A stretch of 64,000 bases of DNA from Prosthecobacter sp. (lineage in GTDB: Bacteria; Verrucomicrobiota; Verrucomicrobiia; Verrucomicrobiales; Verrucomicrobiaceae): contig NZ_JACSRD010000202.1 of the NCBI RefSeq assembly GCF_014879935.1, positions 4,572-68,571 on the forward strand. Reading direction: 5' to 3'. Made by a program: the position numbers and the translations under genes. Numbering within the stretch: position 1 is the first letter of the stretch; each line of letters begins with the position of its first letter. Under the pieces are notes generated by a model that saw only the letters and a program-made list of their open reading frames with translations, made no database searches and had not been told where the DNA came from. Of the stretch, positions 3,397 through 30,527 are shown one piece after another.

Positions 3397-3419
3397 GGGA
3401 CAATCCCCGCAGGTGAGGG
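3397..3419 (-). promoter_or_regulatory. Conserved upstream motif, copy 1 (minus strand CTCACCTGCGGGGATTGTCCC)
   Basis: One of 8 same-orientation copies. Its core lies 33 nt upstream of ATG 3369. Function is not established. Confidence 0.5.
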
Positions 3420-3424
3420 AGAAG

Positions 3425-3459
3425 GAATGACGAATGACGAATGACGAATGACGAATGAC
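3425..3459. repeat. Tandem heptamer array (GAATGAC)x4 plus the variant GAATGCG
   Basis: Read directly at 3425-3452 (4 perfect units) and 3453-3459. It sits 56-90 nt upstream of the wza-like start, immediately distal to motif copy 1. Confidence 0.9.
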
Positions 3460-3624
3460 GAATGCGGAAGAGGTGGAGAGTTGGAGGCGACGGGAAGAGG
3501 CACGGTGAAGCGTGAACAACGTACTTCCAAGCCCAGGGGCGAGGCGCATCGATGCTCCGTCTCAGGAAGCGCGAAGGATGAAGCGCGTCCCTATCCTGAT
3601 CTCTCAGCTCTCCCGCTCTGCGGC

Positions 3625-4326
3625 TTACTGCTGGTGCTCGAGATACTTGATGACCGCCTCGGTGCGGGAGCGGACGTGGAGCTTGGCGTACACGGCCTTC
3701 AGGTAGTCGCGCACGGTCTCGTAGCTGATGCCGAGGTCGTGGGCGACCTCCTTGGGGACCATGCCCTGGGCGAGGCGTTCGAGGATCTGGCTTTCGCGGG
3801 GCGTGAGGCCGGGGATTTCCTTTTTCTGCGGCACCACGGGCTCCTGAAAGCTCTTGATGAGCAGGCGGGCGATCTCCTGGCTGAGCGGGGAGCCGCCCTC
3901 GCTGGCCTGACGGACGCCGGTGGCGATCTCATTGGGCCGGGAGGACTTCAGCAGGTAACCGTTGGCACCGGCACGCAGCGCGGCGAAGACCTTGTCCGGA
4001 TCATCGTGAATGGTGAGGACGACAAAGGCGGTGTTGCTGAGTCGTGGCGACATCTGGCGGATCAATTCGATGCCGGAAACCTTCGGCAGCTCCAGATCGA
4101 CGATGACGACGTGCGGCCGTGTCTCGGCGATGGGTTGGGCGGCTTCCTCGGCCGATTCCCAGGCTCCCACGAACTCAAAGCCGTTCGACGGTTTCTGAAT
4201 CAGCTTCTTGAGGAACAGACGCAGAGTGGCGTCATCCTCGACAACGCCGACGCGCAGTGTCTTGAGGGTGCTGGAACCGTTGCTGGAACCGTTGATGGAA
4301 TCGAACATGGAGAAACTAAACGGCAT
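3625..4326 (-). CDS. NarL/LuxR-family two-component response regulator (REC + GerE-type HTH)
   Basis: REC: RVGVVEDDATLRLFL..VVIVDLELPKVSGIELI..AGANGYLLK. HTH: LTPRESQILERLAQGMVPKEVAHDLGISYETVRDYLKAVYAKLHV. The 661-aa track ORF is an Arg/Pro-rich artefactual extension that overlaps the next gene out of frame. ATG 4326 is used; ATG 4308 is an alternative. Confidence 0.9.
   Translation of the reverse strand: MPFSFSMFDSINGSSNGSSTLKTLRVGVVEDDATLRLFLKKLIQKPSNGFEFVGAWESAEEAAQPIAETRPHVVIVDLELPKVSGIELIRQMSPRLSNTAFVVLTIHDDPDKVFAALRAGANGYLLKSSRPNEIATGVRQASEGGSPLSQEIARLLIKSFQEPVVPQKKEIPGLTPRESQILERLAQGMVPKEVAHDLGISYETVRDYLKAVYAKLHVRSRTEAVIKYLEHQQ
4270..4293. repeat. Perfect 2 x 12-nt in-frame tandem duplication (gctggaaccgtt) in the N-terminal tail of the response regulator
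   Basis: Read directly. It encodes NGSS-NGSS upstream of the receiver domain. Confidence 0.9.
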
Positions 4327-4415
4327 GGCAGCCTGGGCAGACAACGCTTTTTTCCTAAACCTTGTCGTAGGCGAGGGTAAGACTTGGTTAGATTGCGCAA
4401 GCAATGAGGGCAGAT

Positions 4416-7400: not shown

Positions 7401-7427
7401 TGAAGGAGTGAGGGCTAGGTCTGACAT
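4416..7427 (-). CDS. Fusion protein: Wzz/Wzc-like polysaccharide co-polymerase (PCP) + degenerate BY-kinase-like domain + C-terminal Wza-like OPX domain
   Basis: N-terminus: TM (WWLMLVAGGALAAGMFVV), Wzz-like region and a long coiled coil (..LKLDHETLDLRIQGVEKELDKV..AELAVRYTDEHPTMIEAREKL..), then a second TM (LAMVTGGGFAAGAGVVALLAIIFTLL). Middle (about 5385-5950): P-loop-ATPase-like layout with no Walker A (LCGLMHADDAATATRMTRMLAMAAVRRG) and a degenerate Walker B (LVILITLPS). C-terminus (4416-5384): hydrophobic segment FAALLVLSSTFLHAAP, then Poly_export LLLGPGDAVNIHMPG..ITIGPDGRLTYLQARDIHVAGLSLDQLREKL plus SLBB units. There is no in-frame stop anywhere. First ATG is 7427; the track start TTG 7436 is an alternative. 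Confidence 0.8.
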   Translation of the reverse strand: MSDLALTPSSPNHLRPRVLRRRALARRRAEVMLDLEPAVEAAAPAAASIKLPFDPLRLIDALVRRWWLMLVAGGALAAGMFVVGYDRFETLHTARAQLIKQEAAAAFRQSDSGESFRPRDMTIPTFIKLMYNGNVVEAAAKRLQGRYDERVIRSGLVIAPERNTEVVSISMTGNQSAQASLEILQAYISEVLMLARDLQRGSATEMREFLQQQIGRTDADLVKANEELLAYAKREQLVDADKQMDAWLGELGNFTLKYETLKLDHETLDLRIQGVEKELDKVDTNAARLDAARRQVAELAVRYTDEHPTMIEAREKLAAMEEQMKHLGPRADAPPKPGESAVAESLYLELVRLRSEKKVMQEQLGKLDTVRSGLNERLAQLPRKAMEYASIKSKQQTLKASRDLLASRQREAALFEEDAQGYFKLFAMDRPQDVLSVKPTQKLAMVTGGGFAAGAGVVALLAIIFTLLDSRIRSAGDLKRATGVPVIGLLPQDQRQLHESEEAWAFRTWTRLQPMLVIPARGEATLCGLMHADDAATATRMTRMLAMAAVRRGLGCLTISPEGDVDIDEALREPERVIEHLRESPESVCSLRVGDDWSWNAAQRQQWLAAMNVWRTTPQLVILITLPSVEQPEALLVAERLPNLLWAGSSGGARVQNVSDALRMYRDAGCRLVAAVLDHAPTLKPLALARFAALLVLSSTFLHAAPASQPLLLGPGDAVNIHMPGFQGHERSEITIGPDGRLTYLQARDIHVAGLSLDQLREKLTTELRRYYRNAKVVVTPFTFQSRKVYVLGKVVKKGAINLDRPMSILEIVAEAGGLETGLFQQNTVELADLGRSFLMRGQQRVPVNLESLFLHGDMTQNVPVEPGDYLYFPSANSNEIYVLGDVKMQGTQGLLAHTSVHSAITTAGGFTQKAYTRRVLVVRGSLEKPERFVVDMDDVLTARDKGFRLEPKDIVYIADRPWARAEELLNLAINAFLQGAVSSWTNHNIGPYIQNPILPSIR

Positions 7428-7456
7428 GGTCCTCAAAAGTGCGCCTCACCTGTGGC

Positions 7457-7480
7457 GGGGACAATCCCCCCAGGTGGGGG
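7457..7480 (-). promoter_or_regulatory. Conserved upstream motif, copy 2 (CCCACCTGGGGGGATTGTCCC)
   Basis: Core 7464-7476, 36 nt upstream of ATG 7427 and directly after the stop (7483-7485) of the preceding gene. Here it is followed by an inverted CAGGTG, which gives a possible hairpin. Confidence 0.5.
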
Positions 7481-7482
7481 AA

Positions 7483-8613: not shown

Positions 8614-10589
8614 GGGCGGGCGGATTTGTGGAAGATCAGCGAACTGGTCAGCTCCAGGATGGAACCGCAGCCAAACACGGCGAGATCGGCCGCGTAGCGC
8701 TTCAGCAAACGGCGTGGCTCCTGCAGCAGGCGGAAGACCCATTCGAGGCCGCATCGGCGCATCCACACCGGTGCGCGGCGCATCGAGCCGGCCAGGAAGT
8801 CGATCGTGGCCCCCACGCCGACGCTCACCGGCACCCCGAGCGCCTGGTAGTTCCGCGCGATCCATTTCTCCTGCTTCGGACAGCCGAAGGAGACGAGCAG
8901 GATGTCCGGTGCTGCCTCGCGGATGCGGCGGTTGATCGCGTCGTGGTTCATCTTGTCCAGGGGCGCGAACGGCGGGGAGTAAGCGCCCGCCACCTCAAGC
9001 TCCGGATACTGCGTCTCCACATTCCGCACGGCTTCGGCGAGCACGCCACGCTCGCCTCCGAGAAAAAAAACGCGCCAGCCTGCCTTCTCCGCCTTGGCGA
9101 GCAGTTCGGGAACGAGGTCGGATCCGGCCACGCGCTCCGGCAGCGGCCGCCCGAGCCATTTCGAGAGCCAGACGAGCGGGGTGCCGTCGCAGACGACCAT
9201 GTGCGCCTTGTCGAGGATGCGCCGCAGCTCCGTGTCGCGGGAGGATTGCACCAGGAAGTCCACGTTGGCCGTGGCGAGGTAATGCGGCTGACGGGAGGTC
9301 ACCATGTCGCCGATGCGTTCGACCGTCTGCGCCATGGTGACGACATCAAAGGGCACGTCCATGATGCGGATCTGGCGACGGCGGTCCGGTTCGAAGCGTG
9401 ATTCGATGGCGCGGCACAGTTTCGCGCCGATCTGACGCCAGCCGAAGCGTTCCCGGGCCGTGCGGATGCCATTCACGCGCAGATGCTCGCGCAGGGGTGG
9501 ATTCTGCAACGCACGGACGATCTGATCCGCGAAGGTTTCAATCGTGTCCGCCAGCAGGATGTTGGTGTCATGCTTCAAATCGAGGCCTTGGGCACCAATC
9601 GTCGTCGAAACGACCGGCGTGCCGATGGCGAGGCTCTCGACGATCTTCAAACGTGTGCCGCCGCCGATGCGCAGGGGCACCATTTGCAGCCACGAGCGAC
9701 GGTAGAAAGGCCGCACGTCCTCAACGCTGCCCGTGACGGTGACGCCGGGCCGCGTGGCGTAGGCCTGCACTTCCGGCAGGGGCGATTTGCCGACGATCAG
9801 CACCTGGAGATTCGGCACGGCCTTCAACACGCGTTCGTGAATGCCGCTGAAGAACCAGCGCAGCGCATCCACATTCGGCGTGTAGTCCATCGCGCCGCAG
9901 AACAGCACCGTGGGCTGTGCGGCCAGGGGGCCGGGTTCCGGGTCCGCTTTGAAGTAGTCGAGATCGACGCCGTTGGCGATCACCTGGAGCGGCACTTCCT
10001 GGCTGATGCGCTGACGCACAAAGACCTCGTCATCCGGTCCGCACAGCACCTGGAGCTGGCTGCGCCGCGCCACCTTGCGCTCAAAGAGCCACATCTTGGC
10101 CAGATGTTCGCCGGCGAGGAACTTGTCCTTGATGTTGTGGGTGTTGAACGCGGCCTGCTGCGTCTGGAACTGCAGATCCACGCGGCTGCGGTCGATGCTG
10201 AGCGGGATGTCCTTGTGCTCGTCGAGGAAATACTGGGCCAGGACGATGTCGCACACATGGACGAGGTCATAGCGCCGGCTTTTGACCTGCTGGCGGATGA
10301 CTTCGGCGATGTGCGGGAGCTGCCAGTGGCGGATCGACGAAGGGGTGAGGTTGAGAAGACGGTTCGGGAACAGTTTGGGCCACTGCGGATGCTGGAAGGG
10401 AACGAAGGTCACCTCGCGGCAGAAGGCTTCAAACACGGGCCGGTGTTCCAGGCGCTCGCCATTCTCGCTCAAGGCGATGAGGTCCACCGTGTGTTCGCGG
10501 GCCAGCTCGCGCAGGAGGTGGAAGGTGCGCTGATACGTTCCGCGGTCGATCGGATACGGAATGTAGGGGTAGATGACGAGAATGTTCAT
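8610..10589 (-). CDS. Bifunctional glycosyltransferase: N-terminal GT4 + C-terminal WecB/TagA/CpsF (GT26) domain
   Basis: GT4 part: MNILVIYPYIPYPIDRGTYQRTFHLL..FCGAMDYTPNVDAL..RIGGGTRLKIVESLAIGTPVVST. GT26 part: ATANVDFLVQS..VVCDGTPLVWLSKWLG..VAGSDL..FFLGG..SFGCPKQEKWI..GVGATIDFLAG..RAP.WMRR.GLEW.FRL. ATG 10589 is preferred; ATG 10604 is an alternative. Confidence 0.85.
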   Translation of the reverse strand: MNILVIYPYIPYPIDRGTYQRTFHLLRELAREHTVDLIALSENGERLEHRPVFEAFCREVTFVPFQHPQWPKLFPNRLLNLTPSSIRHWQLPHIAEVIRQQVKSRRYDLVHVCDIVLAQYFLDEHKDIPLSIDRSRVDLQFQTQQAAFNTHNIKDKFLAGEHLAKMWLFERKVARRSQLQVLCGPDDEVFVRQRISQEVPLQVIANGVDLDYFKADPEPGPLAAQPTVLFCGAMDYTPNVDALRWFFSGIHERVLKAVPNLQVLIVGKSPLPEVQAYATRPGVTVTGSVEDVRPFYRRSWLQMVPLRIGGGTRLKIVESLAIGTPVVSTTIGAQGLDLKHDTNILLADTIETFADQIVRALQNPPLREHLRVNGIRTARERFGWRQIGAKLCRAIESRFEPDRRRQIRIMDVPFDVVTMAQTVERIGDMVTSRQPHYLATANVDFLVQSSRDTELRRILDKAHMVVCDGTPLVWLSKWLGRPLPERVAGSDLVPELLAKAEKAGWRVFFLGGERGVLAEAVRNVETQYPELEVAGAYSPPFAPLDKMNHDAINRRIREAAPDILLVSFGCPKQEKWIARNYQALGVPVSVGVGATIDFLAGSMRRAPVWMRRCGLEWVFRLLQEPRRLLKRYAADLAVFGCGSILELTSSLIFHKSARP

Positions 10590-10630
10590 GGGGTGCGTCT
10601 TCATTCTGCGTGCTGCGACTCAGCTTTGCA

Positions 10631-10649
10631 TCGCCCGCAAGTGAGGGGG
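10631..10649 (-). promoter_or_regulatory. Conserved upstream motif, copy 3, diverged (CTCACTTGCGGGCGATGCAAA)
   Basis: Starts 1 nt after the stop (10650-10652) of the preceding gene and lies 41 nt upstream of ATG 10589. A CAGAAT hexamer sits 17 nt downstream of ATGCAA. Confidence 0.4.
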
Positions 10650-11714: not shown

Positions 11715-12925
11715 GCGGCCAGGAATTCCTCCACTTGGTCAACGATCGGCTCCATGGCGAAGCGGCGGCGGACCTCCTCGTGGCCGTTGATGGTGATGCG
11801 GTTGCGCAGCGCGGCATCTTTTTGCAGCAGGCGGATGCGCTCGGCCAGATGGCCCGCATCGCCCGCGTCGTAGGTGAGTGCGTTGTCGGCATGGCGGAAG
11901 AGCTCGCGGCTTCCGCCGGTCAGTGTGCCGATGACCGGAAGACCGCAGCTCATGGCCTCCAGCGGTGTGAGCGCGAAGGGTTCCTCCCACTCCGAGGTGA
12001 ACAGGAGGGCATCGTGGCTGCGATAGATCGCCGGCATCTGGTCCGGCGTGGCGCTGTGCCAGGAGACGGGCAGGTGATGCTCCTCGGCGAAGCGTTTCAA
12101 GCCGTCCACGTAGCTGGCGTCGCCCTTGCCATAGACACGCAGTTCGCCATGAAAATTCTCCTTCAGCAGCGCCAGCGCACGGAGGGCGGTGTGGATGCCT
12201 TTGTCCTCCGCCAAACGGCCGACCCAGAGCCAGCGCCGTGGATCGCGCAGGGCGGGGGAGCCGCTGAAGTGCTCCGTATCCACCGGGCAGTGGATCACAC
12301 CGCCATGACCGACATCGTAGCCCTGCTGCGCGGTGAGCTCGCGAAGCCGGGCGCTGGTGAAGTAGAGACGTGGAAAGCGGATGTCGCTGACCGGGTTCGT
12401 GGGGGCGAGCGGACTGAGACGTCGCTGGCGGCCCAGCAGGGTCCACACCAGGCGCTGCGCCTGGGCACCGAGCGAGCCTTCGCGGCGGTTCCACCAGTCG
12501 AGCCACACATCCGCCTTCAGGCTGCGGAGGATCCAGTGATCGCTCACATCATACACCACGCGCACGCCCAACTGCTGCAGCGTGAGGCAGAGCGACTTCG
12601 AAAGGCCGTTCATGCACCACACATGCACGACGTCCGGCCGGAAGTCCGCGATGTGCCTGCGCAGCGTGTCATTGTTGTGAATCTCCAGGTGCTGGAGCTC
12701 GCTGAGCGGCAGCCAGGGGTGCCCGTAGTAGCCATGGACGCGGAGCTGGCGGTGCACATGCGGCTGACCGGCCGGTGGCGGGGCGGAGTCGAGGCCGTGA
12801 TCGCTGGTCAGCACGCGGATTTCGTGACCCCGGGCCTGCAAGGCCTCGGTGATGGCGGCGCAGCGGAGTTCGTAACCGCCGACGTAGAAGGGCGGGTAGA
12901 GATTGGTGAGCGTGAGGATGCGCAT
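11711..12925 (-). CDS. Glycosyltransferase family 4
   Basis: Start re-set to MRILTLTNLYPPFYVGGYELRCAAITEAL (ATG 12925). WVGRLAEDKGIHTALRALA..FTSEWEEPFALTPLEAMSCGLPVIGT. Confidence 0.85.
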   Translation of the reverse strand: MRILTLTNLYPPFYVGGYELRCAAITEALQARGHEIRVLTSDHGLDSAPPPAGQPHVHRQLRVHGYYGHPWLPLSELQHLEIHNNDTLRRHIADFRPDVVHVWCMNGLSKSLCLTLQQLGVRVVYDVSDHWILRSLKADVWLDWWNRREGSLGAQAQRLVWTLLGRQRRLSPLAPTNPVSDIRFPRLYFTSARLRELTAQQGYDVGHGGVIHCPVDTEHFSGSPALRDPRRWLWVGRLAEDKGIHTALRALALLKENFHGELRVYGKGDASYVDGLKRFAEEHHLPVSWHSATPDQMPAIYRSHDALLFTSEWEEPFALTPLEAMSCGLPVIGTLTGGSRELFRHADNALTYDAGDAGHLAERIRLLQKDAALRNRITINGHEEVRRRFAMEPIVDQVEEFLAA

Positions 12926-12972
12926 GGGGCAGGAAAGCACCGGGACGCTCAGGGCAGGAGTCGCGGCTGTCA

Positions 12973-12990
12973 GTCCCCCCAAGTGCGGGT
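12973..12990 (-). promoter_or_regulatory. Conserved upstream motif, copy 4 (CGCACTTGGGGGGACTGACAG)
   Basis: 47 nt upstream of ATG 12925, in the 71-nt divergent gap shared with the plus-strand kinase. Confidence 0.4.
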
Positions 12991-12996
12991 GCATTG

Positions 12997-18965: not shown

Positions 18966-18997
18966 GCGTGTCCGGAGTGTGCGGCCGTGGCCCCGCC

Positions 18998-19020
18998 GGA
19001 ACAATCCCCCCAGGTGGGTG
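18998..19020 (-). promoter_or_regulatory. Conserved upstream motif, copy 5 (CCCACCTGGGGGGATTGTTCC)
   Basis: Core 19004-19016, 38 nt upstream of ATG 18965 and just downstream of the terminator at 19038-19075. Confidence 0.5.
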
Positions 19021-19037
19021 GTGAGCGCATCCCGATC

Positions 19038-19075
19038 AAAAAAACGAGACCGGAAGACTTTCGTCCTCCGGTCTC
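19038..19075 (-). terminator. Rho-independent terminator after the FkbM gene
   Basis: Minus strand reads GAGACCGGAGGACGAAAGTCTTCCGGTCTC-G-TTTTTTT: a 9-bp perfect outer stem (19046-19054 with 19067-19075), inner pairs, and a T7 run (A7 at 19038-19044 on the plus strand). Confidence 0.75.
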
Positions 19076-19102
19076 ATCGCAGACCAACCGATGCAGAAAT
19101 GG

Positions 19103-19825: not shown

Positions 19826-19839
19826 GAATGGAAAAGGTT

Positions 19840-21051: not shown

Positions 21052-21434
21052 GCACTGAGGACCAGGCCGAGCAGGCGCTGGATGTCCTTGCGCAATTGCG
21101 AGGGGCTGAAGGGCTTGGTGATGAACAGGGAGGCATCTTCAAAGCCGTGATGCTGGCCGCGGGCGAGCTGGCCGCGGGCGCTGAAGATGACGACGGGTAT
21201 GTCCTGCGTGTCGGGGCTGGATTTGAGCTCACGGAGCGTCTCCTTCCCGTCCATGACAGGCATGATGTGGTCGAGCAGGATGATGCAGGGCCTCTCACGA
21301 CGGGCAATGTCGAGCGCCTCTCGCCCATCGGTGGCGGTGAGCACCCGAAGGCCGAGGGGCCGCATGCTGAGCTCCGCCACACGGCGGATGTGCGGCTCGT
21401 CATCGACGATGAGGATGGGGCTATCGGCTGGCAT
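21048..21434 (-). CDS. Stand-alone receiver (CheY-like) response regulator
   Basis: Start re-set to MPADSPILIVDDEPHIRRV (ATG 21434). IILLDHIMPVMDGKETLRELK..PVVIFSA..FITKPF. It overlaps the upstream gene by 14 nt. Confidence 0.85.
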   Translation of the reverse strand: MPADSPILIVDDEPHIRRVAELSMRPLGLRVLTATDGREALDIARRERPCIILLDHIMPVMDGKETLRELKSSPDTQDIPVVIFSARGQLARGQHHGFEDASLFITKPFSPSQLRKDIQRLLGLVLSA

Positions 21435-23184
21435 GACTGAGTGACTGCGGGCAGGGAACGGGAAGGGTGGCATGGGCGCGGGCGAGGATGATGAAGGTCG
21501 CATCGTCCCGCACACGGGCGGACTCATGATAGACGCGGTGCATCTGACGGAGGCTATCGCGGGCCGCCCAGGCATCCAGCCCCGCAACTGAGGTGCTTCT
21601 CAGCCAGTGATGCAGCATTTCCCGGGTGATCTGAACCTCGGAACTGGTGCTGTCACTGAGGCCGTCGGTGTGCATGAGGATGTGCGTGATGCCTTTGAGA
21701 TGGATCTCATGCTGCGGGAACACGTACTCCTCGCTGACGCCGAGCGGCGGGCCGTCGGAGCCGATCTCGGCCACTTCGACACCATCGGAGAGCAGCAGCG
21801 GGCCATGACCGGCGCCGCAGGTGCGCAGGGTGAGGCTGTCAGGGCTGAGGTAAGCAAGCTGCGCGGTGATGAACATGTCCGCACGGTCCAGTTCGGTGAA
21901 CAGGCTGCGGTTGAGCTGGTACATCAGCTTCGCCGGCTCGGCAGCGAGGCTCAGGTGGGCGTGGAGATTGCTGCGGAAGGCGGTGGCGAAGAGGGCGGCG
22001 GGCACGCCTTTGCCCATCACGTCCGCGATGACAAAAAGACGCCCGCCATCGGCAAGCGGGATGCCATCAAGGAAATCGCCACCGACCTCACCCACGGAGG
22101 TGAGATGCCCGGCGCTCTGCACCACAGCGCTTTGCGGCAGTTCCACCGGCAGCAGCGAGCGCTGGATGTCCGCGGCGATCTGCAGCTCCCGTTTGATGAG
22201 GCGGGAGTGATTCGCCTCATCGCGACGACGCAGGGTGTGCAGCAGGGTGCCGAGGAAGTCCCCCAGGCTGCGCACGACATTGATCTCGGCGGCCTTCGGC
22301 TCCCAGTGGGCCTTGTTCACGCCAAAGGTGATCACGCCGATCACCTCGCCACCGCTTTCCAGCGGGTGAGCGACGCCGCTGACGGTCTGATGAAGATGAG
22401 AGAGCGGATCGGCGCCGTCGAAGGCCGAACTGCCATCGAACCACTGATCCTGACGGGAGATGCAGGCACGCGATTCCACAAGATGGGTGCTGCTGACATC
22501 GAGAAAGGGCGTGACGAAGGATGTCGCCGGCGAGACGGCGATGCGCTCGAGCTGCGTGCCGTCCGGCGTCATCATCCGCAGGCTGAGAAAGTCCGCCGCG
22601 GCAAGCTGCCGCAGCTCTTCCAGCCAGTTGGCCGCCAGGGTGTCCGCAGGAATGTCACGCGCGGCATCCGCGCCGAGCCGGAAGATGTTTGCCAGCATTT
22701 CATAGCACGCGGAAAGTTCCGCGGTCATGACTTTGAGCGTCGCGGCGGCATCATCGTCCTTCCGTGGAGGCGTGCGGCGGTCGCGCTGGAGATGCAGCAC
22801 GTTTTCCTCGCGGCCGCGCAGGTAGCTGACGCGATCGGTGAGCGATTCGATGATGAATAGCCCGCGTCCGTGCTCGGATTCGTCATCTTCGGGCAGGCTG
22901 GCTTTCACCGGCCAGTCAAAGTCCGAGCTGTGGTCGGTCACCCGCACCTCGACGCCAGTGGTGGTCGTGGTGGCCTGGATGTTCAGCGGGCTTTCGCTTT
23001 CGCTGTGGACCACGGCGTTTCCTGCGGCCTCCGCCAGCACCAGTTCCCACTCGCGGCACTCCTCAGCGCCGAGGTTCTGGTGATCCAGCCAGGCGATGAC
23101 TTCGCGCACAGCCTCATGGGCTGATTGCAACGTGGCTTGGAAGTCGATGCGGACACCGGAGCAGGACTGGCGGACGAGATGCAT
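21421..23184 (-). CDS. Fused RsbW-like serine kinase (HATPase_c_2) - GAF-like - PP2C/SpoIIE phosphatase (SypE-like switch protein)
   Basis: N-terminus: LVLAEAAGNAVVHS..VRVTDHSSDFDW..EHGRGLFIIESL (anti-sigma-factor-kinase type). Middle: GAF-like, ..GVAHPLESGGEVIGVITFG... C-terminus: [46 protein letters not shown] (SpoIIE/PP2C). Confidence 0.8.
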   Translation of the reverse strand: MHLVRQSCSGVRIDFQATLQSAHEAVREVIAWLDHQNLGAEECREWELVLAEAAGNAVVHSESESPLNIQATTTTTGVEVRVTDHSSDFDWPVKASLPEDDESEHGRGLFIIESLTDRVSYLRGREENVLHLQRDRRTPPRKDDDAAATLKVMTAELSACYEMLANIFRLGADAARDIPADTLAANWLEELRQLAAADFLSLRMMTPDGTQLERIAVSPATSFVTPFLDVSSTHLVESRACISRQDQWFDGSSAFDGADPLSHLHQTVSGVAHPLESGGEVIGVITFGVNKAHWEPKAAEINVVRSLGDFLGTLLHTLRRRDEANHSRLIKRELQIAADIQRSLLPVELPQSAVVQSAGHLTSVGEVGGDFLDGIPLADGGRLFVIADVMGKGVPAALFATAFRSNLHAHLSLAAEPAKLMYQLNRSLFTELDRADMFITAQLAYLSPDSLTLRTCGAGHGPLLLSDGVEVAEIGSDGPPLGVSEEYVFPQHEIHLKGITHILMHTDGLSDSTSSEVQITREMLHHWLRSTSVAGLDAWAARDSLRQMHRVYHESARVRDDATFIILARAHATLPVPCPQSLSHASR

Positions 23185-23196
23185 GGGGGACGGGGA

Positions 23197-23481
23197 TCAG
23201 GCGTGGACGATTTCAAACACGCGATGCAGGCGTGTCAGCTCAATGAGCTGCGTGACGGCCGTGGAGGGATTCAGCAGCTTCAAGATGCCGCCCTGGGCGC
23301 GAAGCGTCTTGTGCAGGGAGAGCAAGGCGCCGAGGCCGGAGCTGTCGATGAAGCGCGTCTTGGACAGATCGACGGCCGTTTCCGTGGATTCGGGCGTGAT
23401 GTCGCGTGCGACGCGGTCTTTCCAGGCGCGGGCGGTGGAGGAGCAGAGTTCAGCGGGTGCGGTGATGACTGTTGGGTTCAT
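23197..23481 (-). CDS. STAS-domain anti-sigma-factor-antagonist-like protein (SpoIIAA/RsbV/SypA type)
   Basis: 94 aa. DLSKTRFIDSSGLGALLSLHKTL contains the conserved phosphorylatable-Ser motif DSSGLG. Confidence 0.85.
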   Translation of the reverse strand: MNPTVITAPAELCSSTARAWKDRVARDITPESTETAVDLSKTRFIDSSGLGALLSLHKTLRAQGGILKLLNPSTAVTQLIELTRLHRVFEIVHA

Positions 23482-23486
23482 GAGGA

Positions 23487-24791
23487 TCAGACTTGGCAGG
23501 TTTGGGGGATGTTTTTGTCGAGTTGGCCGGTGGCGGACTCGTGGGTGCCGTTCAGGGCCAGAAAGCGGGGCAGGCAGCGCAGGAGGATGCGCAGGTTCAT
23601 GCGGACGGAACGGTGCACGCTGTAACAGGCGGCGTGGGCAAGGGCGGCCTCCGGTCCTTCCAGGCCATCGTCCGTCGCATCGGCGAGCGAGAACACTCCC
23701 GCGGGCGAGGCTAGCCAGAGCTGCTCGAATTCATCTCCCAGCGCCGCGGCTTGGGGCGCGGTGAGCGGGCGGTTGCCGACGAGGTGCATGTCACCACGAA
23801 AGACGCGCCAAAGCTCCGGCCAGCGAGCGAAAAGACTGTCGATGCCGTTCAGCGCATGCAGAGGCGTGGTGCGCGTGTAGCGATCCTGACGGCCGGGTGG
23901 CGGCAGGATGATCTGGCGTCGCACCACGGTGGTCTCATGCCGCATGAGCCTCGTCCGCAGCATGGTGAAGGCGGCCAGGGGCAGCGTGAGCACCATCAGC
24001 AGCAAGGCGAAGAGCCGCGTCATCCACGCGGACGGCTTGCCGCCGTAGTGCTGGCGCTTCAGGCTGGCGAGGAGGAACTCATCCGTGATCTCGACAAACG
24101 AGGCGAGGCGCCAGTTTTCGAGGCCGTCTCCCCACGCGAAGGAGTGCGAGACCTCGGTCATGGCGCCGACATACGTGTTCGGGCCGATCCAACTGCCGCG
24201 CACAGTGGACTGATGGTCAATGAAGGCCGCGTTCTCGATGATGGAGCCGCCCATGATGTGGACGTTTTCTCCGATGATGACACGTGGGCCGATCCATGCG
24301 GGGCCTTCGATGACGGCCGTGGAAGCGATGCGCGCACGCGTGCTGACAAACACATCCGAGGCCAGACGGCGCATGGTGAGGCGTGATTCGGGCTCCACGT
24401 GCTTGAACTTGCGCCGCATCACGTCGTAAAGGCCTTCGGTGCTCTCCCAGAGCGGCAGCGTGGGGCCTTCCGGCAGTGTTTCGAGCGCGATGACCGACGT
24501 TTCGGCATCCGTGGCGAAGAGCGTGCGGGCGGCCTCGATGGTCGGCTCCCGGGGCACGGGAATGATCGTGATGCGCAGGCCCCAGCGACCGCCGTCACCC
24601 GTGGCGCGGCGGATTTCCTCAGGACGGTCCGCCACGAGCAGCGTGACCTCCTTGACGCCGTCGATGGCCAGTTTTTCAAGCCACAGGTCGAGCAGCTCAC
24701 GGCCCATGAAGGGCATGAGGGCCAGCGGTTTCATGCGGCGGGCGAAGCCGGCGCATTCGCGATGATCTGGAAGGATGACGACAGCTTTCAT
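23487..24791 (-). CDS. Fusion: nucleotidyltransferase-like + left-handed beta-helix domain + TM + degenerate bacterial sugar-transferase (PGT-like) domain
   Basis: N-terminus resembles sugar-1-P nucleotidyltransferases (MKAVVILPD..KPLALMPFMGRELLD..GVKEVTLLV) but has no clear GxGTRL loop. Hexapeptide-like turns: IEGPAWIGPRVIIGENVHIMGGSIIENAAFIDHQSTVRGSWIGPNTYVG. TM: LFALLLMVLTLPLAAFTML. PGT-like tail: WPELWRVFRGDMHLVGNRP..SPAGVFSLAD, lacking the KFRTM block and the Asp-Glu dyad. Confidence 0.7.
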   Translation of the reverse strand: MKAVVILPDHRECAGFARRMKPLALMPFMGRELLDLWLEKLAIDGVKEVTLLVADRPEEIRRATGDGGRWGLRITIIPVPREPTIEAARTLFATDAETSVIALETLPEGPTLPLWESTEGLYDVMRRKFKHVEPESRLTMRRLASDVFVSTRARIASTAVIEGPAWIGPRVIIGENVHIMGGSIIENAAFIDHQSTVRGSWIGPNTYVGAMTEVSHSFAWGDGLENWRLASFVEITDEFLLASLKRQHYGGKPSAWMTRLFALLLMVLTLPLAAFTMLRTRLMRHETTVVRRQIILPPPGRQDRYTRTTPLHALNGIDSLFARWPELWRVFRGDMHLVGNRPLTAPQAAALGDEFEQLWLASPAGVFSLADATDDGLEGPEAALAHAACYSVHRSVRMNLRILLRCLPRFLALNGTHESATGQLDKNIPQTCQV

Positions 24792-24794
24792 GGC

Positions 24795-25550
24795 TCACAT
24801 GCCTTTCCCCAGCACAATGGCGGGCACGGTTTTCAGAAGGATCCACAGGTCGCGGAGGAAGGACTGGCTCTCGATGTAGCGCACGTCGAGCCGCACCTGC
24901 TCGTCAAAGTCGATGGAGTTCCGGTCGCCGATCTCCCACAGGCCGCCTTCGCGTTCTCCCACCTGCCACAGGCAGGTGATGCCAGGCCGCGCATGCAGGC
25001 GGCGGCGGTCGCCGGGCGAATAGAGCGCCACCTCACGCGGCAGCGGCGGACGCGGGCCGACGATGGACATGTCACCGCGCAGCACGTTGATGAACTGCGG
25101 CAGCTCGTCGATGGACGTCTTGCGGATGAAGCGGCCGACGGGTGTCACACGTGGATCGTTCTTCATCTTGAAGGTCACACCCTGCGCCTTGTCGTTTTGG
25201 GCCAGGAGCTCGGCCAGCTTCGCCTCCGCATCCACACACATGGAGCGGAACTTCAGCATCTCGAAGTGGCGGCCGAGCATGCCCACGCGCTTCTGCTTGA
25301 AGAACACCGGGCCGCCATCACGGCGGATGAGCAGCGCCACGATGATGAACACTGGCGAGGCGAGCAGCAGGCACACGAGGCTGATGACGATGTCAAAGAG
25401 ACGCTTCACGGCGTGGGTGCCATTCACCACCGTGAGCCAGCTCCAGCGTTTCAAATGCATGCCCAGGCGCATGCGGAGACGGCCCATGCGGTTCTGCGCC
25501 TGCAGGAGACGTGCGGCTTGCTGTTCAGCGAGGTGCGATGTGTGAATCAT
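24795..25550 (-). CDS. Small phosphoglycosyl transferase (bacterial sugar transferase family, PglC/WecP-like initiating enzyme)
   Basis: RLFDIVISLVCLLLASPVFIIVALLIRRDGGPVFFKQKRVGMLGRHFEMLKFRSM..KTSIDELPQFINVLRGDMSIVGPRPP..RPGITCLWQV. All hallmark blocks are present. Confidence 0.9.
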   Translation of the reverse strand: MIHTSHLAEQQAARLLQAQNRMGRLRMRLGMHLKRWSWLTVVNGTHAVKRLFDIVISLVCLLLASPVFIIVALLIRRDGGPVFFKQKRVGMLGRHFEMLKFRSMCVDAEAKLAELLAQNDKAQGVTFKMKNDPRVTPVGRFIRKTSIDELPQFINVLRGDMSIVGPRPPLPREVALYSPGDRRRLHARPGITCLWQVGEREGGLWEIGDRNSIDFDEQVRLDVRYIESQSFLRDLWILLKTVPAIVLGKGM

Positions 25551-25584
25551 GAGTGGATCGTGAATGATGGGGCGGTGTTTGTAA

Positions 25585-25602
25585 CTCCCCGCAGGTGTGG
25601 GG
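25585..25602 (-). promoter_or_regulatory. Conserved upstream motif, copy 6 (CACACCTGCGGGGAGTTACAA)
   Basis: Core 25585-25597, 34 nt upstream of ATG 25550. A G7 tract (25605-25611) lies just distal to it. Confidence 0.5.
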
Positions 25603-25620
25603 AAGGGGGGGATGGTCCGT

Positions 25621-26868
25621 TCAGGCGGCGGCGAGCGCCGCGGGTGTCAGGACTTCCGAAACCGGGTGTGAAAGCCGTGGCGCGGCATGCTGCGCCACGT
25701 CGGTGAACATGGTTTCCAGATCGCGGATGTAGCCGTCGAAGTCGTAGCGCTCCGAAACGAGCTTCAGGCCGTTTTCACCCATCTCGCGGGCCTTGGCCTT
25801 GTTTTGCAGCAGCTCATCCAGACGCTGCGCAAACGCGCCGCGGTCCATCCACGGCACCAGATGGCCGTTGTGGCCGTCGATGAGCCAGTCTTTGATGCCA
25901 CCGGCGTCAAAAGCCACGACGGGCAAGGCATAGCGCATGACTTCGAGCCCGATGGTTGCGATAGGCTCCGGCCACACACTGCTCAATGCGACGACACTGC
26001 ATTCGCGGTAGTAGGCCTTCAGTTCCTCCTGCGGGATGAAGCCTTTGAAATGTACGCGGTCGCTCAGGCCCAGATCGCGGCTCAACTGCTCGCAGTGGGC
26101 CTTGTGATTGCCATCGCCGAGGATGATGCATTCAAAGTTGCTTTTCACCTTCGCCAGCGACTCCAGCAGCACGTCCACACCTTTGCCACGGATGATCTGG
26201 CCGGCGTAGAGGATCAGATTGCGGTCGCTGAAGCTGCTGCGGAGCGTGGGATCACCCATGCGCGGCACGGGTGCGTGGATCTCAATGCGGTTCGCGTCAA
26301 AGCCGTTCCGCAGCAGTTCATCACGCATGTAGGTGGTGACGACGACCATGCGGTCAAAGCGGCGGTTTAGCGCGATCTCGCGCTTCTTCTGGCGATAGCT
26401 CAACCATTTCAGCGGGAGGCTGCCGCCGCTGTTGTTTTTCACCACGCATGCGCCGCAGCCGAAGACGCAATAGAGCGAGGCGGCACGCGTGCAGATCTCA
26501 CGGGAGAAGTAGTGATACTTGTAGCTCCGCATGCAGTAGATGTCGTGGTCATGCACCATGCGCACGAGCGGCACATTGCTGTCCACCAGCGCCTGGATGA
26601 CATCGAGGTCGGCCATTTTGTGCACATAGACGACGTCCGGCCGGAAACGCAGCACGGCGTCCTTTGTCTGTGCCGCCGCCGTGCTGCCGGAGAGAGGAAA
26701 CGTGTGGGTGAAGACCTGCCTCCAGCCGTTCTCGTTCTTTCCGGTGCCAGGACCGTGAAGGATGGCGATGTCGTGGCCGCGTTTCGCGAGTTGTTCGGCG
26801 GTGATGAAGGCGTTGGCCTCGGCCCCGGCCAGGGCGCCGAAGCGTTCGTGAACGTAAAGGATCTTCAT
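25621..26868 (-). CDS. Glycosyltransferase family 4 with a Cys-rich insert
   Basis: Start re-set to MKILYVHERFGALAGAEANAFITAEQLAKRGH (ATG 26868). YAGQIIRGKGVDVLLESL..LSSVWPEPIATIGLEVMRYALPVVAFDAGGIKDWL. Confidence 0.85.
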   Translation of the reverse strand: MKILYVHERFGALAGAEANAFITAEQLAKRGHDIAILHGPGTGKNENGWRQVFTHTFPLSGSTAAAQTKDAVLRFRPDVVYVHKMADLDVIQALVDSNVPLVRMVHDHDIYCMRSYKYHYFSREICTRAASLYCVFGCGACVVKNNSGGSLPLKWLSYRQKKREIALNRRFDRMVVVTTYMRDELLRNGFDANRIEIHAPVPRMGDPTLRSSFSDRNLILYAGQIIRGKGVDVLLESLAKVKSNFECIILGDGNHKAHCEQLSRDLGLSDRVHFKGFIPQEELKAYYRECSVVALSSVWPEPIATIGLEVMRYALPVVAFDAGGIKDWLIDGHNGHLVPWMDRGAFAQRLDELLQNKAKAREMGENGLKLVSERYDFDGYIRDLETMFTDVAQHAAPRLSHPVSEVLTPAALAAA

Positions 26869-26905
26869 GAGGCCGCGAACATGCGGCCGTGCGCAGGCGC
26901 TTGAA

Positions 26906-26923
26906 ATCCCCGCAGGTGGGTGG
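26906..26923 (-). promoter_or_regulatory. Conserved upstream motif, copy 7 (CCCACCTGCGGGGATTTCAAG)
   Basis: Core 26906-26918, 37 nt upstream of ATG 26868 and 15 nt after the stop codon (26934-26936) of the preceding kinase. Confidence 0.5.
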
Positions 26924-26933
26924 TGGTTCGCCG

Positions 26934-29897
26934 CTACTTCGACCAGGCGGTGAGCGCGGGCGCGGCGATCTTGAAGGCCTGCTTGATCTGCTCCACCAGC
27001 GCCGGCTGGTTTGTGCGCGCGCCTTGCTCGGCGAGTTGTTCCAGCTCGCGGCACAGCGCGTGCAGTTGATTGAGTCCGAAGAGGCTGCTGCTGCCCTTCA
27101 AGGCATGCGCCACGCGGCGGAGCGAGTTCTGATCGTCAGTCGCGGCGAGTTTTTCGAGCTCCTGGATGCGTTCCGGCGTGTCTTTGAGCCAGTTCTGGAC
27201 GAGCTCGGCCGTGTCTTCGCGGCTCAGCTCCTCGATGAGTTGTGAAATGGCCTCCTGCACGGCGGATTGGTCGTCCGGCGCTGAATCCGGCCCTGGTTCG
27301 ACGATTCTCGTGTTCTCCAGCACACGGACATGACTCAGTGCTTCGGTCAGAGCCTTCGCACGCAGCGGTTTTGAAACGTAGTCGTCCATTCCGGCCGCGA
27401 GACAGCGTTCACGCTCGCCCGCCATGACGTTCGCGGTCATGGCGATGATCCGGCACCGCGGGCGCTTCCACAGCGCGGTGGATTCGATCTCGCGGATGGT
27501 GCGCGTGGCCTCGTAGCCGTCCACGCGTGGCATGTGGCAGTCCATCAACACGGCGTCATAGACACCGCTGGCAAAGCGGTCCACCGCCTCCTCTCCATCG
27601 CGGGCGACTTCGGCGGGATAGCCGTGTTTTTCGAGCATCATCATGGCCATGCGGGCGTTCACCTCGTTGTCCTCGACCACGAGGAGTCGCGGCCGGCTGC
27701 CTGTGCCATGGGCAGGCACCGTGGCGGCGGTGTCCGCGGCCTGCGGCTCCGGCTCGGCATCGGGCATGCCTTGCGCGATCTTGAGCGGCAGATGGAACCA
27801 GAAGCGTGAGCCGGCGAAACGTTCGCTCTCCACGCCGATGCAGCCGCCCATGAGCTCCACAAGGCGTTTGCAGATGGCCAGGCCGAGTCCGGTGCCGCCG
27901 AAACGACGGGACGACGAGCTGTCCACCTGGGTGAAGGGCTGGAACAACTGGGCCTGCTGCTCCTCCGACATGCCGATGCCGGTGTCTGCGACACTGATCT
28001 CGAGCGTCACCGGCCCCTCGGCCGGCGAGGTGAGACGTTTGACGTCGATGCGGATGTTGCCCTCGTCGGTGAACTTGATGCCGTTGCCGACGAGGTTCAT
28101 GAGGATCTGCCGCAAACGGCCTGGATCGCCCACCAGCGTCGGCGGCACGTCAGACGCGATGTGCGTGATGAGTTCGATGTCGCGCGCGGCCGCCTTGTGG
28201 CGCAGCAGATCCACCACGCCGCGCACCACATCGTCCATGCGGAAGGGTTCCTCGACGATCTCGAGCTTGCGGGCCTCGATCTTGGAGAAATCGAGGATGT
28301 CGTCGATGATCGTCATCAGCGACTCGCCGCTCTGTCTCACGGCATCCACCATCTCCCGCTGCTTGGGCGCGAGGTCGGTGTCGAGAAGCAGGGAGGACAT
28401 GCCGATGATGCCGTTCATGGGAGTGCGGATCTCATGGCTCATGGTGGCCAGGAAGTCGCTCTTGGCGCGTGAGGCCGTCTCCGCGGCTTCCTTGGCCTGC
28501 AAAAGCTGATGTTCCGCCGCGCGGCGGACGATGTACTGGCCGATCTGGTTGCCGATGCCGGACAGCGACTCCAGCAGCGAGTCATCGGGGTCCAGGAAGT
28601 CCCGGCTGAAAAACTCGACCGACGCGATCGTGTCTCCGCCGGCCATGACCGGAAACGACAGCGCTCCATGCAGGCCGCAGGCAGCCACCACATCGGCGCG
28701 GGCGAAGGGCTCCGGCTGGGTGGCAAAGTCGCGATACCAATGGGCGCGGCCCGTCTTCCACACGAGGCCCGGCAGGTCCTCGCCGGATTCGAAGACCACT
28801 TCCCGGCTGCGGGTCGCGAACGCCTCCAAATCGACTGCCGGATCGTGCCACAGCTCGGCCAGGCGCATGTTTGTGAAGGTCGGGTCCACCATCCACATTG
28901 CTCCGGCGGTCCAGCCGAGCTTGGTGCAGATCATCTGGATCACCTTGGCCGCCGCCTGCCGCATCGTGTCCGCCTCCGCCAGGATGCGGCTGGCGGAGAA
29001 CTGCATGGCACGACGTTGTTCGTCGAGGCGGCGTTGCGTGATGTCGCTTTCGATCGCCATGAAGTTCACCACCTCGCCCTTGTCATCATGCATGGGCTGC
29101 ACTTCCACGGAGACCCAGTAGCGTTTTCCGGAGCGATGGTAGTTCAGGACCTCGGTGCGGAAGCTCTTCTTCTCCGCGATGCACCGGGCCATGTGGGCGA
29201 TGGTGGTGGGATCGGTTTCCGGTCCCTGGAGCAAGTCTCCCGGCTTTCGGCCTTCAGCCTCCGCTTGGGACCAGCCGGTGATGCGGGTGAAGCCTTCATT
29301 CACCCACTCGATGCGTCCTTGGGCGTCGGTCACGACCACTCCGTTGTCGGTGCGTGCGGCCACCAGCGCCAGTTTGCGCAGGCTTGCCTCCTGGGCTCGT
29401 AGCTGCGCCCGTTGTTCGGTGAGACGTTTGTTGAGCTTCTGCAGATCATCCGTGGCCATCCGCTGGGTCTGCAGCACCTGCAGCAGATCGATGGTCTGGT
29501 CGTGCACGGCGAAGTCGCTCATCGTCAGGCCGAAATCGTCCACCTGGTCCGGGTCGCTGAGCCACGGACTGCCGAGCAGCACGCCGTGAGGTGGGTCGTC
29601 GAGAATGATGGCCTGGCCGCGCAGCACCCGTTTCGAGTGCTGATCTTCCAGAAGGAACAGCCGGTCGGTATGACCCGCGGCCATGGCGTGGGTGAAAACA
29701 CCTTCCGGCTTTCTCGAGACGAACAGATCCGGAAGGCGTGCCCCAACCACAGCGTGCGGGCAGAATTTCAGCAATGACGGCCCGGTTTCGAGGATCACGT
29801 CGTTGTCATCCCACACGAAGTAGAAGGGAAACGCACGGAGGAACTCCCGTGTCGGGAGGCTGCTGATCACACTGGAGGTGTCCGGGCGGAGCTTCAT
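26934..29897 (-). CDS. Hybrid sensor histidine kinase: HNOBA - PAS - GAF - HisKA - HATPase_c - REC - HPt
   Basis: The N-terminus is collinear with the heme-NO-binding-associated region of soluble guanylate cyclases: [73 protein letters not shown] plus a coiled coil. PAS: [26 protein letters not shown] follows. HisKA: [19 protein letters not shown]. HATPase: [35 protein letters not shown]: [26 protein letters not shown]. HPt: [13 protein letters not shown]. Confidence 0.85.
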
Positions 29898-30451
29898 GCG
29901 GCGGCGGAGGTCCAGCGAACCTCGAAGACATCGTGATCAGCGCCTGCGGCCTTGGATTCGACCAGCGTCGCCGTGGCGGGCGTCTTGTAGAGCTTTCCAA
30001 GGCCCTGCACGAGGCCCACCACGAAGTCCGTCAGCCCGGAACGATGGGTAAGGTAGTGCAGGCGCAGCGAGTTGTCACCGATGTCCGAGCACTCGAAGCT
30101 CGGCGGGCGGAGGTTCGGGTAGATCATGGTCACCCGTGTGTGGAAGTTGGGCAGGTTGAGGAGGAACTCCTTCAGTGACTGCCCGCCGGAGCGCATCATC
30201 GCCCCGTAGCTCTTCGCGGCTGTCTCCAGCACCCAGTGCTCGCCGAAGGCGATGAGGATGTCGCGTGCCGGGGCGCCGAGGATGTCGGAGGCCGCGCTGA
30301 CCAGGTCGTAGGTGATGTCGTCGGGATAGGCCTCGTTGCTCACAAACACCTCCACATCCACGCCGGCTTTCGCCTTGATGGCTTCCCATTTGCGTTCTCC
30401 GAACTGGGTGACGACGAGATCTTCGATGGCTTTGTTGACGAGTCCGTACAT
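29894..30451 (-). CDS. hnoX: H-NOX (heme nitric oxide/oxygen binding) sensor protein
   Basis: Canonical N-terminus [13 protein letters not shown]. Proximal-His context [25 protein letters not shown]. Heme-propionate motif as Y-x-T-x-R ([18 protein letters not shown]). ATG 30451 is used; the track start is GTG 30466. ATGA-type 4-nt overlap with the downstream kinase. Confidence 0.9.
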
Positions 30452-30507
30452 GGCGATTGAGGACACTCATAAACGAAGGAGATCCCGCGTGCACGGCCTT
30501 CCAGCCG

Positions 30508-30527
30508 ATTCCCCGCATTTGAGGGGG
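30508..30527 (-). promoter_or_regulatory. Conserved upstream motif, copy 8, diverged (CCTCAAATGCGGGGAATCGGC)
   Basis: 56 nt upstream of ATG 30451, immediately after the T-run of the terminator at 30528-30567. Confidence 0.4.

Follow-up and report, generated by a model that had tools for sequence, protein, structure and literature searches.

A conserved 7-2-7 inverted-repeat box upstream of eight transcription units in a Prosthecobacter exopolysaccharide locus: a candidate response-regulator-dependent promoter

Background

How the separate transcription units of a large polysaccharide locus might be expressed together is the question raised by a 64,000-nucleotide (nt) stretch of DNA from Prosthecobacter sp. 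(contig NZ_JACSRD010000202.1; hereafter the window, in whose own numbering coordinates are given). Positions 1-30.5 kb of the window are a Wzx/Wzy-type exopolysaccharide locus by Pfam assignment, and eight transcription units in it carry on their 5' side a copy of one short motif, here called the box. An earlier note on this DNA had read these copies as an operator abutting the -35 element of a promoter, and had named as possible trans-acting factors either a NarL/LuxR-type regulator encoded in the locus or an unlinked sigma factor. What kind of element the box is, and what may act on it, are the subjects of this study.

To our knowledge, no promoters or regulons have been mapped in free-living Verrucomicrobia, and our literature searches on the motif, on Verrucomicrobial promoters of such a type and on exosortase Z or its regulation returned no earlier description. 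Haft et al. 2006 (PMC1569441) described a sigma-54/PrsR element for proteobacterial PEP-CTERM genes, found Verrucomicrobium to be without PrsK/PrsR, and left further motifs outside the Proteobacteria still to be found. The locus studied here addresses that gap, flagged in 2006, in the regulatory motifs of exosortase-linked polysaccharide systems outside the Proteobacteria.

We find that the box is an inverted repeat standing in fixed register to -35- and -10-like hexamers, that it is conserved among related loci and restricted to this type of locus in one clade, and that it co-occurs with a response regulator gene. On the evidence of sequence comparison we propose, with moderate confidence, that each copy is a composite regulator-dependent promoter at which a dimer of the NarL/FixJ-family regulator of the locus would activate at least eight units together.

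Occurrence of the box

A core search on both strands of the window recovers the eight copies where the earlier note had placed them, all on the minus strand and all intergenic. The core sequence CAYYTGSGGGGA has six exact matches, every one minus-strand and intergenic; with one mismatch allowed there are nine matches against 3.3 expected, a count that none of 100 shuffles attained, and the palindromic skeleton CCNCANNTGNGG occurs nine times against 1.7 expected. A position weight matrix (PWM) of 30 nt built from the eight window sites, a check that the note had suggested, scores those sites at 25-37 bits and the rest of the 64 kb on both strands below 8 bits, which is a circular test with a large gap. 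The same matrix agrees with the report that no copy precedes the 21-kb glycosyltransferase operon or the plus-strand genes of the window. Some copies do start only a few nucleotides past the preceding stop codon, as had been said, and the distance from core to ATG reaches the 56 nt given as its upper limit, the lower limit being 32 nt (for a 14-nt core) and not 33.

Related loci were collected by synteny and ranked by the identity of their PCP-OPX protein (L004, 86%; L005, 73%; L006, 68%; L101, 56%; L102, 53%), and the further loci L106 and L107 were reached through the phosphoglycosyl-transferase (PGT) gene. The PWM finds the box at orthologous promoters in every one of these (L004, L005, L006, L101, L102, L106 and L107), so that orthologous sites are retained down to 53% PCP-OPX identity. 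Each site moreover keeps its own variant: the GT4/WecG box always reads ...TGCGGGCGATGC and the GT4b box always CCCGCACTTGsGGGGAmTGAC (GT4, glycosyltransferase family 4). Within ortholog groups the box and the TTG that follows it are invariant, while the upstream flank and the 17-nt spacer downstream are scrambled with no indels, and conservation returns in a second island at the -10 position (CACACTT in the case of wzx). In related loci totalling about 250 kb, all copies at or above 18 bits face a gene start at a distance of 13-47 nt. A few copies below that score do not, namely second boxes of divergent regions and a single antisense copy in a coding region. In the relatives the box also heads the operon of an Npun_F0296-family PGAP-CTERM surface protein and exosortase Z. 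No box was found in L103, L104 and L105, whose PCP-OPX identities are 46%, 38% and 34%.

One 17-mer variant of the motif, CCACCTGSGGGGATTGT, was also scanned against one genome per species, 185,579 species in all, and matched 94 stretches, of which 80 are listed and provide the figures given here. Of these 80, 22 belong to Verrucomicrobiaceae-type genomes, some of them labelled Akkermansia, and several genomes have two to four matches; the other listed matches are single and scattered over unrelated phyla, as chance predicts. Upstream of wzx, PCP-OPX or wza orthologs lie 20 of the 22 listed Verrucomicrobiaceae-type matches, with the ATG 31-36 nt past the match, and the remaining two are chance-like occurrences in coding sequence. 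Because none of the listed Verrucomicrobiaceae-type matches stands before an unrelated gene, a large dispersed regulon or a generic repeat is disfavoured, as far as a scan with this one 17-mer, and not with the degenerate matrix, can show. As to the labels, records titled 'Akkermansia muciniphila' (L035, L048, L070, L084; CALSBJ01..., CAMAZK01...) carry a locus nearly identical to L004 and are probably mislabelled or contaminated bins.

Architecture of the box and of the proposed promoter

The earlier note had missed the symmetry of the motif. The box is a 16-base 7-2-7 inverted repeat, two heptamers separated by 2 bp (CCCCnCA-NN-TGsGGGG), a spacing that is the classic high-affinity arrangement for dimers of NarL-family regulators. 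Over 56 unique instances, drawn from the window together with its related loci, the consensus runs C-C-C/A-C-n-C-A, two free bases, T-G-S-G-G-G-G, A, T-T-G-(T)-n-n. Numbered from a start placed about 7 nt past the -10 hexamer, the mirror pairs -51/-38, -49/-40, -47/-42 and -46/-43 are complementary in 52-56 of the 56 instances; the two central bases are free to vary, as is the n/S pair. Perfect palindromes occur as well (CCCGCAGCTGCGGG at L006 13772 and CCCCCAATTGGGGGG at L005 4118). The A-TTG after the right half has no mirror image at the left and is therefore a separate, asymmetric element.

After the box come the A, a TTGnnn hexamer, a variable spacer of 17 nt and an nAnnnT hexamer. Across the 56 instances the stretch from -52 to -33 is near-invariant and that from -31 to -13 is variable; T-34 is present in 53, G-33 in 50, A-11 in 45 and T-7 in 42 of the 56, and at -12 most instances have C or G where T is expected. 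The same footprint is seen separately within the ortholog groups of wzx, PCP-OPX, wza, GT4-WecG and GT4b. The claim that five window copies have a CAnnnT exactly 17 nt past the hexamer following GGGGA is correct; of the other three, GT4b shows GAGCGT at the same 17-nt distance and wza GACGGT at 16 nt, and at hnoX there is no such hexamer. In the larger set nAnnnT stands exactly 17 nt past the -35 hexamer in 40 of 62 unique instances and 16-18 nt past it in 52 of 62, against a background of 3.2% per position, whereas the best nAnnnT register anchored on the ATG instead accounts for only 18 of 60. The -10-like hexamer is thus coupled to the motif and not to the start codon. A TTG followed after 17 +/- 1 bp by A-11 and T-7 is the pattern of a sigma-70-type (housekeeping) promoter, and the idea of an operator abutting a -35 element with a -10 element 17 nt further on gains support, in 56-62 instances, from the near-invariant box and TTG, the constant spacer length and A(-11)/T(-7). 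From the centre of the box to the -10 hexamer is exactly 32 bp (1 + 7 + 1 + 6 + 17).

The distance from the -10-like hexamer to the ATG is 5-19 nt in the window and 29 nt at hnoX, most sites having 5-13 nt, and T(-7) lies 7-13 nt ahead of the ATG in 53 of 60 instances, from which leaders of about 0-6 nt are predicted. The near-leaderless mRNAs envisaged by the earlier note are in keeping with these short distances; the lack of Shine-Dalgarno sequences, which it had also cited, was rejected as specific evidence, since almost no gene in the window has one, operon-internal genes included. Many gene starts in the window lie in the context ...(c)cATG, and translation initiation in Prosthecobacter sp. 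seems to be largely independent of Shine-Dalgarno pairing.

The gap between the GT4b gene and a divergent histidine kinase gene holds a further feature of the relatives. In most of them a second 7-2-7 box lies about 32 bp upstream of the first, or 44 bp in L101 (L005 4118 + 4150; L004/L070; L101 2885 + 2929; L102), and the window has a single box only. The second box would lie near -76.5 of the GT4b promoter. In the direction of the kinase this gap has no conserved TTG or nAnnnT geometry in L004, L005 and L101.

The candidate regulator

Twofold symmetry of the 7-2-7 kind favours a dimeric regulator over an unlinked sigma factor, and of the trans-acting factors that had been put forward it is the regulator of the locus that gains by the present results, through its co-occurrence with the box, while the sigma factor loses. 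This regulator, a NarL/FixJ-family response regulator (REC plus GerE helix-turn-helix) encoded at 3625-4326 on the minus strand between PCP-OPX and wza, is the candidate box-binding factor; no other DNA-binding protein was found in the cluster. Its best family and structure matches are to NarL (NCBIfam, PDB), followed by VraR, DevR, DesR and GerE, with VpsT, CsgD and RcsB among the weaker ones; no equivalog cut-off is reached, NarL scoring 132 bits where 250 are needed. Regulator and box are both present in six loci (the window, L004, L005, L006, L101 and L102), with the regulator always between PCP-OPX and wza, and both are absent from L103, L104 and L105. Among the orthologues the recognition helix SYETVRDYLKAVY-KLHVRSRTEAV is invariant, with overall identity down to 67%, and this invariance parallels that of the half-sites. 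A regulator 77% identical is also encoded by Prosthecobacter fluviatilis.

A histidine kinase (HisKA + HATPase_c; 12994-14874, plus strand), overlooked by the earlier note and divergent from GT4b at the fourth copy of the box, is syntenic in L004, L005, L101 and L102 and absent from L006, and is a candidate partner kinase of the response regulator. An H-NOX sensor with a hybrid kinase (HNOBA-PAS-GAF-HisKA-HATPase-REC-Hpt; 26934-30451, minus strand) is transcribed from a box-bearing region and is a possible input and feedback arm of the circuit.

Proposed mechanism and alternatives

We suggest that at each unit the 16-bp inverted repeat is fused in fixed register to a weak sigma-70-type core made up of the A, TTGnnn, a 17-bp spacer and nAnnnT; with transcription starting about 7 nt past the -10 hexamer, the repeat would be centred at about -44.5. 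A dimer of the locus-encoded NarL/FixJ-family regulator, presumably phosphorylated by the divergent histidine kinase and/or by the H-NOX hybrid-kinase phosphorelay, would bind the repeat and recruit RNA polymerase. In this manner eight or more units of the Wzx/Wzy locus would be switched on jointly, the set in the relatives also taking in the operon of exosortase Z and its PGAP-CTERM cargo, and the mRNAs would be nearly leaderless.

Several points weigh against this proposal. Both core hexamers, -35 and -10, match weakly, and a generic sigma-70 consensus scanner makes no call at these promoters, the hexamers being too weak for its 9/12 rule, so that the case for promoters is made by the comparative footprint. 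Phylogeny confounds the association of regulator with box: the loci bearing both form the closer clade, and the association may reflect a single evolutionary event. A paralogue in L006 has the same recognition helix, and the binder is consequently not uniquely identified. The 90-nt gap upstream of the response regulator's own gene contains no box. The hnoX copy is atypical, for it keeps the palindrome but has neither a TTG nor a -10-like hexamer at 17 nt, and its core lies 56 nt from the ATG. The heptamer CCCCnCA differs from the NarL consensus TACYYMT. Finally, a palindrome contiguous with the -35 element fits the operator of a repressor equally well.

A fuller circuit built upon the activation model can be drawn, and we offer it as tentative, being doubtful that it holds as a whole. 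In it nitric oxide or another gas would be sensed by the H-NOX protein, and the hybrid kinase with its Hpt domain would hand the signal on to the NarL-type regulator. Acting at the box, the regulator would drive the exopolysaccharide and exosortase-Z/PGAP-CTERM cargo programme as a whole; the sensor operon would be under positive feedback, the transcripts would be leaderless throughout, and the box would be a Verrucomicrobial counterpart of the PrsK/PrsR sigma-54 element. If true, this circuit would provide the first defined promoter and regulon architecture, and the first case for leaderless initiation, in the Verrucomicrobiaceae.

The repressor just mentioned is the strongest competitor to activation, although we think it unlikely. 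The response regulator, or else an unlinked factor, would as a dimeric repressor sit at the upstream edge of the -35 element and block RNA polymerase until a signal arrives, and NarL-family regulators both repress and activate. The cores themselves speak for activation, since poor hexamers (C or G at -12; a -35 of TTGTCC or ATGCGC) are the usual mark of activator-dependent promoters, and L103, which has no box, uses near-consensus TTGCAA / TATAAT-like elements. So does the placement of the box, as the predicted -44.5 is a position from which activation by NarL is known and repressor sites more often overlap the region from -35 to +1.

More improbable still, in our view, is that the motif is the extended -35 element of promoters for a dedicated alternative sigma factor, of the extracytoplasmic function (ECF) type or under the control of partner switching by STAS and RsbW-SpoIIE proteins. 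A partner-switching module does lie within a box-driven operon, an ECF sigma gene is found a few kilobases from the locus in one relative (L101 21764-22444), and GGGGAT/GGGAAT is, we take it, loosely like the GGAAT-type -35 of some ECF sigmas. Such a factor would leave unexplained the twofold symmetry of the box and the conservation of its left half to -52, past the reach of sigma region 4. Furthermore, A(-11) and T(-7) at 17 nt after TTG make up the housekeeping pattern; the region 16-17 nt after GGGGAT is variable and has no CGT-type ECF -10; no GG-N10-GC pattern of sigma-54 (-24/-12) is present; and no sigma gene is conserved in the locus.

We consider it very unlikely that the motif acts in RNA, as an element of the 5' untranslated region or of intercistronic sequence for antitermination, processing or translation, in the manner of JUMPstart/ops. 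Read-through transcripts would include those copies that lie a few nucleotides past a stop codon, pairing of the C-run with the G-run is possible, and the PCP-OPX copy gives an unusually stable hairpin (z = -4.1), but the other seven of the eight copies fold ordinarily (z from -1.1 to +0.9) and no structure is common to the eight regions. The pair -48/-41 is complementary in only 22 of 56 instances, hence there is no covariation, and the full palindrome would need an impossible 2-nt loop. Rfam returned nothing relevant at the gathering threshold over the whole window or at E <= 1 over 1-31 kb. At two sites the box stands behind a strong terminator, and with the start placed as above it would lie outside its own transcript.

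A generic interspersed repeat of the repetitive extragenic palindromic (REP) kind, or chance recurrence with no regulatory role, can be given almost no credence: the box is G+C-rich, palindromic and intergenic as REP elements are, but it keeps a fixed orientation and register to start codons, its orthologous sites retain their own variants while the flanks diverge, neither the remaining 37 kb of the window nor three related loci contain it, and among the matches listed the genome-wide scan found it in only three orthologous promoter classes in the Verrucomicrobiaceae.

Relation to known systems

The activator model has its closest parallel in the NarL/NarP sites of E. coli (ogt, yeaR, napF), which likewise consist of two inverted heptamers 2 bp apart for a REC-GerE dimer, such binding being a prediction in the present case. 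A single 7-2-7 site centred at -44.5, which is 32 bp upstream of the -10 element, suffices for activation by E. coli NarL (PMC9314961). The additional site at -77.5 of ogt-type promoters resembles the second GT4b box that the relatives have about 32 bp upstream. Unlike NarL, which serves respiration, the system described here has exopolysaccharide targets and belongs to another phylum, besides having the different heptamer already noted; the site would work like a NarL box while falling outside the NarL regulon proper.

In function the nearer comparison is with the RcsB/RcsA box at wza-cps (colanic acid) and with VpsT/CsgD, where a regulator of the FixJ/NarL/LuxR family has its box just upstream of the promoter of exopolysaccharide or capsule operons, wza among them. 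In those systems a locus has a single box or a few, of other sequence, whereas here there is a box for each motif-headed unit in identical register; and no RcsA-like partner was seen in the locus. PrsK/PrsR, at the PEP-CTERM genes of Proteobacteria, shares with the present case a recurrent upstream motif and a two-component system in exopolysaccharide/exosortase loci, but works through sigma-54 (-24/-12), an enhancer-binding protein and long intergenic regions, in contrast to the sigma-70-like elements, NarL-type regulator and very short gaps found here. JUMPstart/ops, which depends on RfaH, is also a short conserved element opening polysaccharide clusters; ops, however, is a non-palindromic element that acts on the non-template strand of the transcribed leader, whereas the box is symmetric and would lie upstream of the start, and no RfaH/NusG paralogue was seen in the locus.

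The mechanism we propose is accordingly of a standard type, with the box of a response regulator in a class-II-like position, and not a new kind; it is the motif itself that is newly described for the phylum. The locus supplies an understudied phylum with a testable promoter model (box, -35, 17-bp spacer, -10) and a candidate regulator-operator pair for a large exopolysaccharide/exosortase-Z locus common in freshwater Prosthecobacter-like bacteria. The box is also useful for the precise annotation of operon boundaries and start codons in these genomes, and the short, fixed distance to the ATG opens leaderless initiation in the phylum to direct test.

The individual sites

All eight sites are on the minus strand. 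The wza-like promoter (3367-3420), which heads a wza-GT4(-acyltransferase) unit, has its box TCCCTCACCTGCGGGG at 3405-3420, a -35-like TTGTCC at 3398-3403, a -10-like GACGGT/ACGGTT at 3375-3381 and the ATG at 3367-3369, and is conserved in L004, L005, L006, L030, L038, L048, L052, L084 and L101. Directly upstream of this box, at 3425-3464 on the minus strand, a heptamer is repeated perfectly in tandem, reading (CATTCGT)x5.7 on the coding strand. Orthologous wza promoters have other heptamer arrays, (CCCTTCG)n in L004/L061, and the gap before the acyltransferase gene of the window (857-987) is full of 7-8-nt tandem arrays (GAGACTGG x6.5, GTTCTCT, TGAGAAC); such arrays could be phase-variable tracts or sites of another factor.

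At the PCP-OPX fusion gene, the second unit, the promoter (7425-7481) comprises the box TCCCCCACCTGGGGGG (7466-7481), TTGTCC as -35-like hexamer (7459-7464), CACTTT as -10-like hexamer (7436-7441) and the ATG (7425-7427), with orthologous sites in L004, L005, L027, L030, L035, L042, L080, L101 and L102. A second palindrome-like sequence, CCACAGGTGAGG on the coding strand (window 7444-7455), is found within the 17-nt spacer of this promoter; together with the box it forms the long hairpin of z = -4.1, and it is not conserved in orthologues.

The GT4-WecG promoter (10587-10648), before a GT4/WecG-GT4 unit, has the variant box CCCCTCACTTGCGGGC (10633-10648), in which the final G is replaced by C, followed by ATGCAA (-35-like, 10626-10631), CAGAAT (-10-like, 10603-10608) and the ATG (10587-10589); the GGGCGATGC variant is kept in about nine relatives. 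The fourth unit, GT4-hypothetical, is headed by the GT4b promoter (12923-12990), divergent from the plus-strand histidine kinase, with box ACCCGCACTTGGGGGG at 12975-12990, CTGACA (-35-like) at 12968-12973, GAGCGT (-10-like) at 12945-12950 and the ATG at 12923-12925.

Before the wzx-GT4-GT2 (glycosyltransferase family 2) unit, the wzx promoter (18963-19021) consists of the box CCACCCACCTGGGGGG (19006-19021), TTGTTC (-35-like, 18999-19004), CACACT (-10-like, 18976-18981) and the ATG (18963-18965), and CACACTT is conserved among its ten unique orthologs. An intrinsic terminator (19043-19078, minus strand), a 16-bp stem followed by a T-run, ends the upstream operon 21 nt before the wzx box and is present in most relatives.

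The PGT operon promoter (25548-25602) heads the unit PGT-PGT/hexapeptide-STAS-RsbW/SpoIIE-REC-phosphodiesterase-FkbM and has its box CCCCACACCTGCGGGG at 25587-25602, GTTACA (-35-like) at 25580-25585, CACGAT (-10-like) at 25557-25562 and the ATG at 25548-25550; box and GTTACA are identical in L106 and L107. The seventh unit is a single GT4 gene, whose GT4a promoter (26866-26923), conserved in L106, has the box CCACCCACCTGCGGGG (26908-26923), TTTCAA (-35-like, 26901-26906), CATGTT (-10-like, 26878-26883) and the ATG (26866-26868). Last comes the upstream region of the hnoX-hybrid kinase operon (30449-30526), with its box CCCCTCAAATGCGGGG at 30511-30526; L106 also has a palindromic box, CCCCTCAACTGAGGGGGG, upstream of hnoX. 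The intrinsic terminator of the 21-kb glycosyltransferase operon (30534-30568, minus strand; 16-bp stem) has its stem end about 7 nt from the hnoX box and its T-run abutting the box. The wzx- and hnoX-adjacent hairpins are the two strongest intrinsic-terminator matches in the 15-31 kb scanned, and with terminators directly upstream of their boxes these two sites have no space for another promoter.

Gene content and additional observations

The gene assignments of the earlier note are essentially right by Pfam, and the interval that it had left blank at 23184-23487 is a STAS gene, which places the partner-switching module (STAS / RsbW-SpoIIE) inside one box-driven operon. The window belongs to a metagenomic scaffold of 116 kb. 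Proteins homologous to the PCP-OPX fusion, with 68-91% identity, carry the labels Prosthecobacter sp. or Verrucomicrobiaceae, and a tRNA scan found none. In several loci a WecG-family glycosyltransferase is fused to two STAS domains (L006 6440-7951, L103 3958-5433, L104 5030-7777, L105 7076-8593), fusions that connect the partner-switching module straight to an enzyme of biosynthesis, not to a sigma factor.

Exosortase Z (NF050190) and the Npun_F0296-family PGAP-CTERM protein are linked to the locus at L005 19400-21692, L101 17957-20298 and L103 6721-9032; the cargo gene is preceded by a box in the box-bearing relatives, its variant in L005 being CCCCACATCTGCGGGGAT.

A box-like sequence, CCGCAACTGAGG, was observed at 21582-21593 on the plus strand of the window, where it scores 12.5 bits and lies antisense in the 3' end of the RsbW-SpoIIE gene. 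Antisense sequence of this type is located near the start of the downstream receiver gene, is found also on the minus strand of L106 at 13964 (17.4 bits), and shows conservation between two relatives; either a promoter, antisense or internal, or mere coding constraint could account for it.

L104 (GCA_031411235.1) has another recurrent element, ...CATTCATCACTCATCACTCATAA(C/T)T..., directly before most ATGs, upstream of the genes starting at 1287, 2250, 9134, 10001, 16551, 19017 and 21082. It contains heptamers like those of the window at 3425-3464, ends in a CATAAT-like hexamer, and may be an independent locus-wide promoter element.

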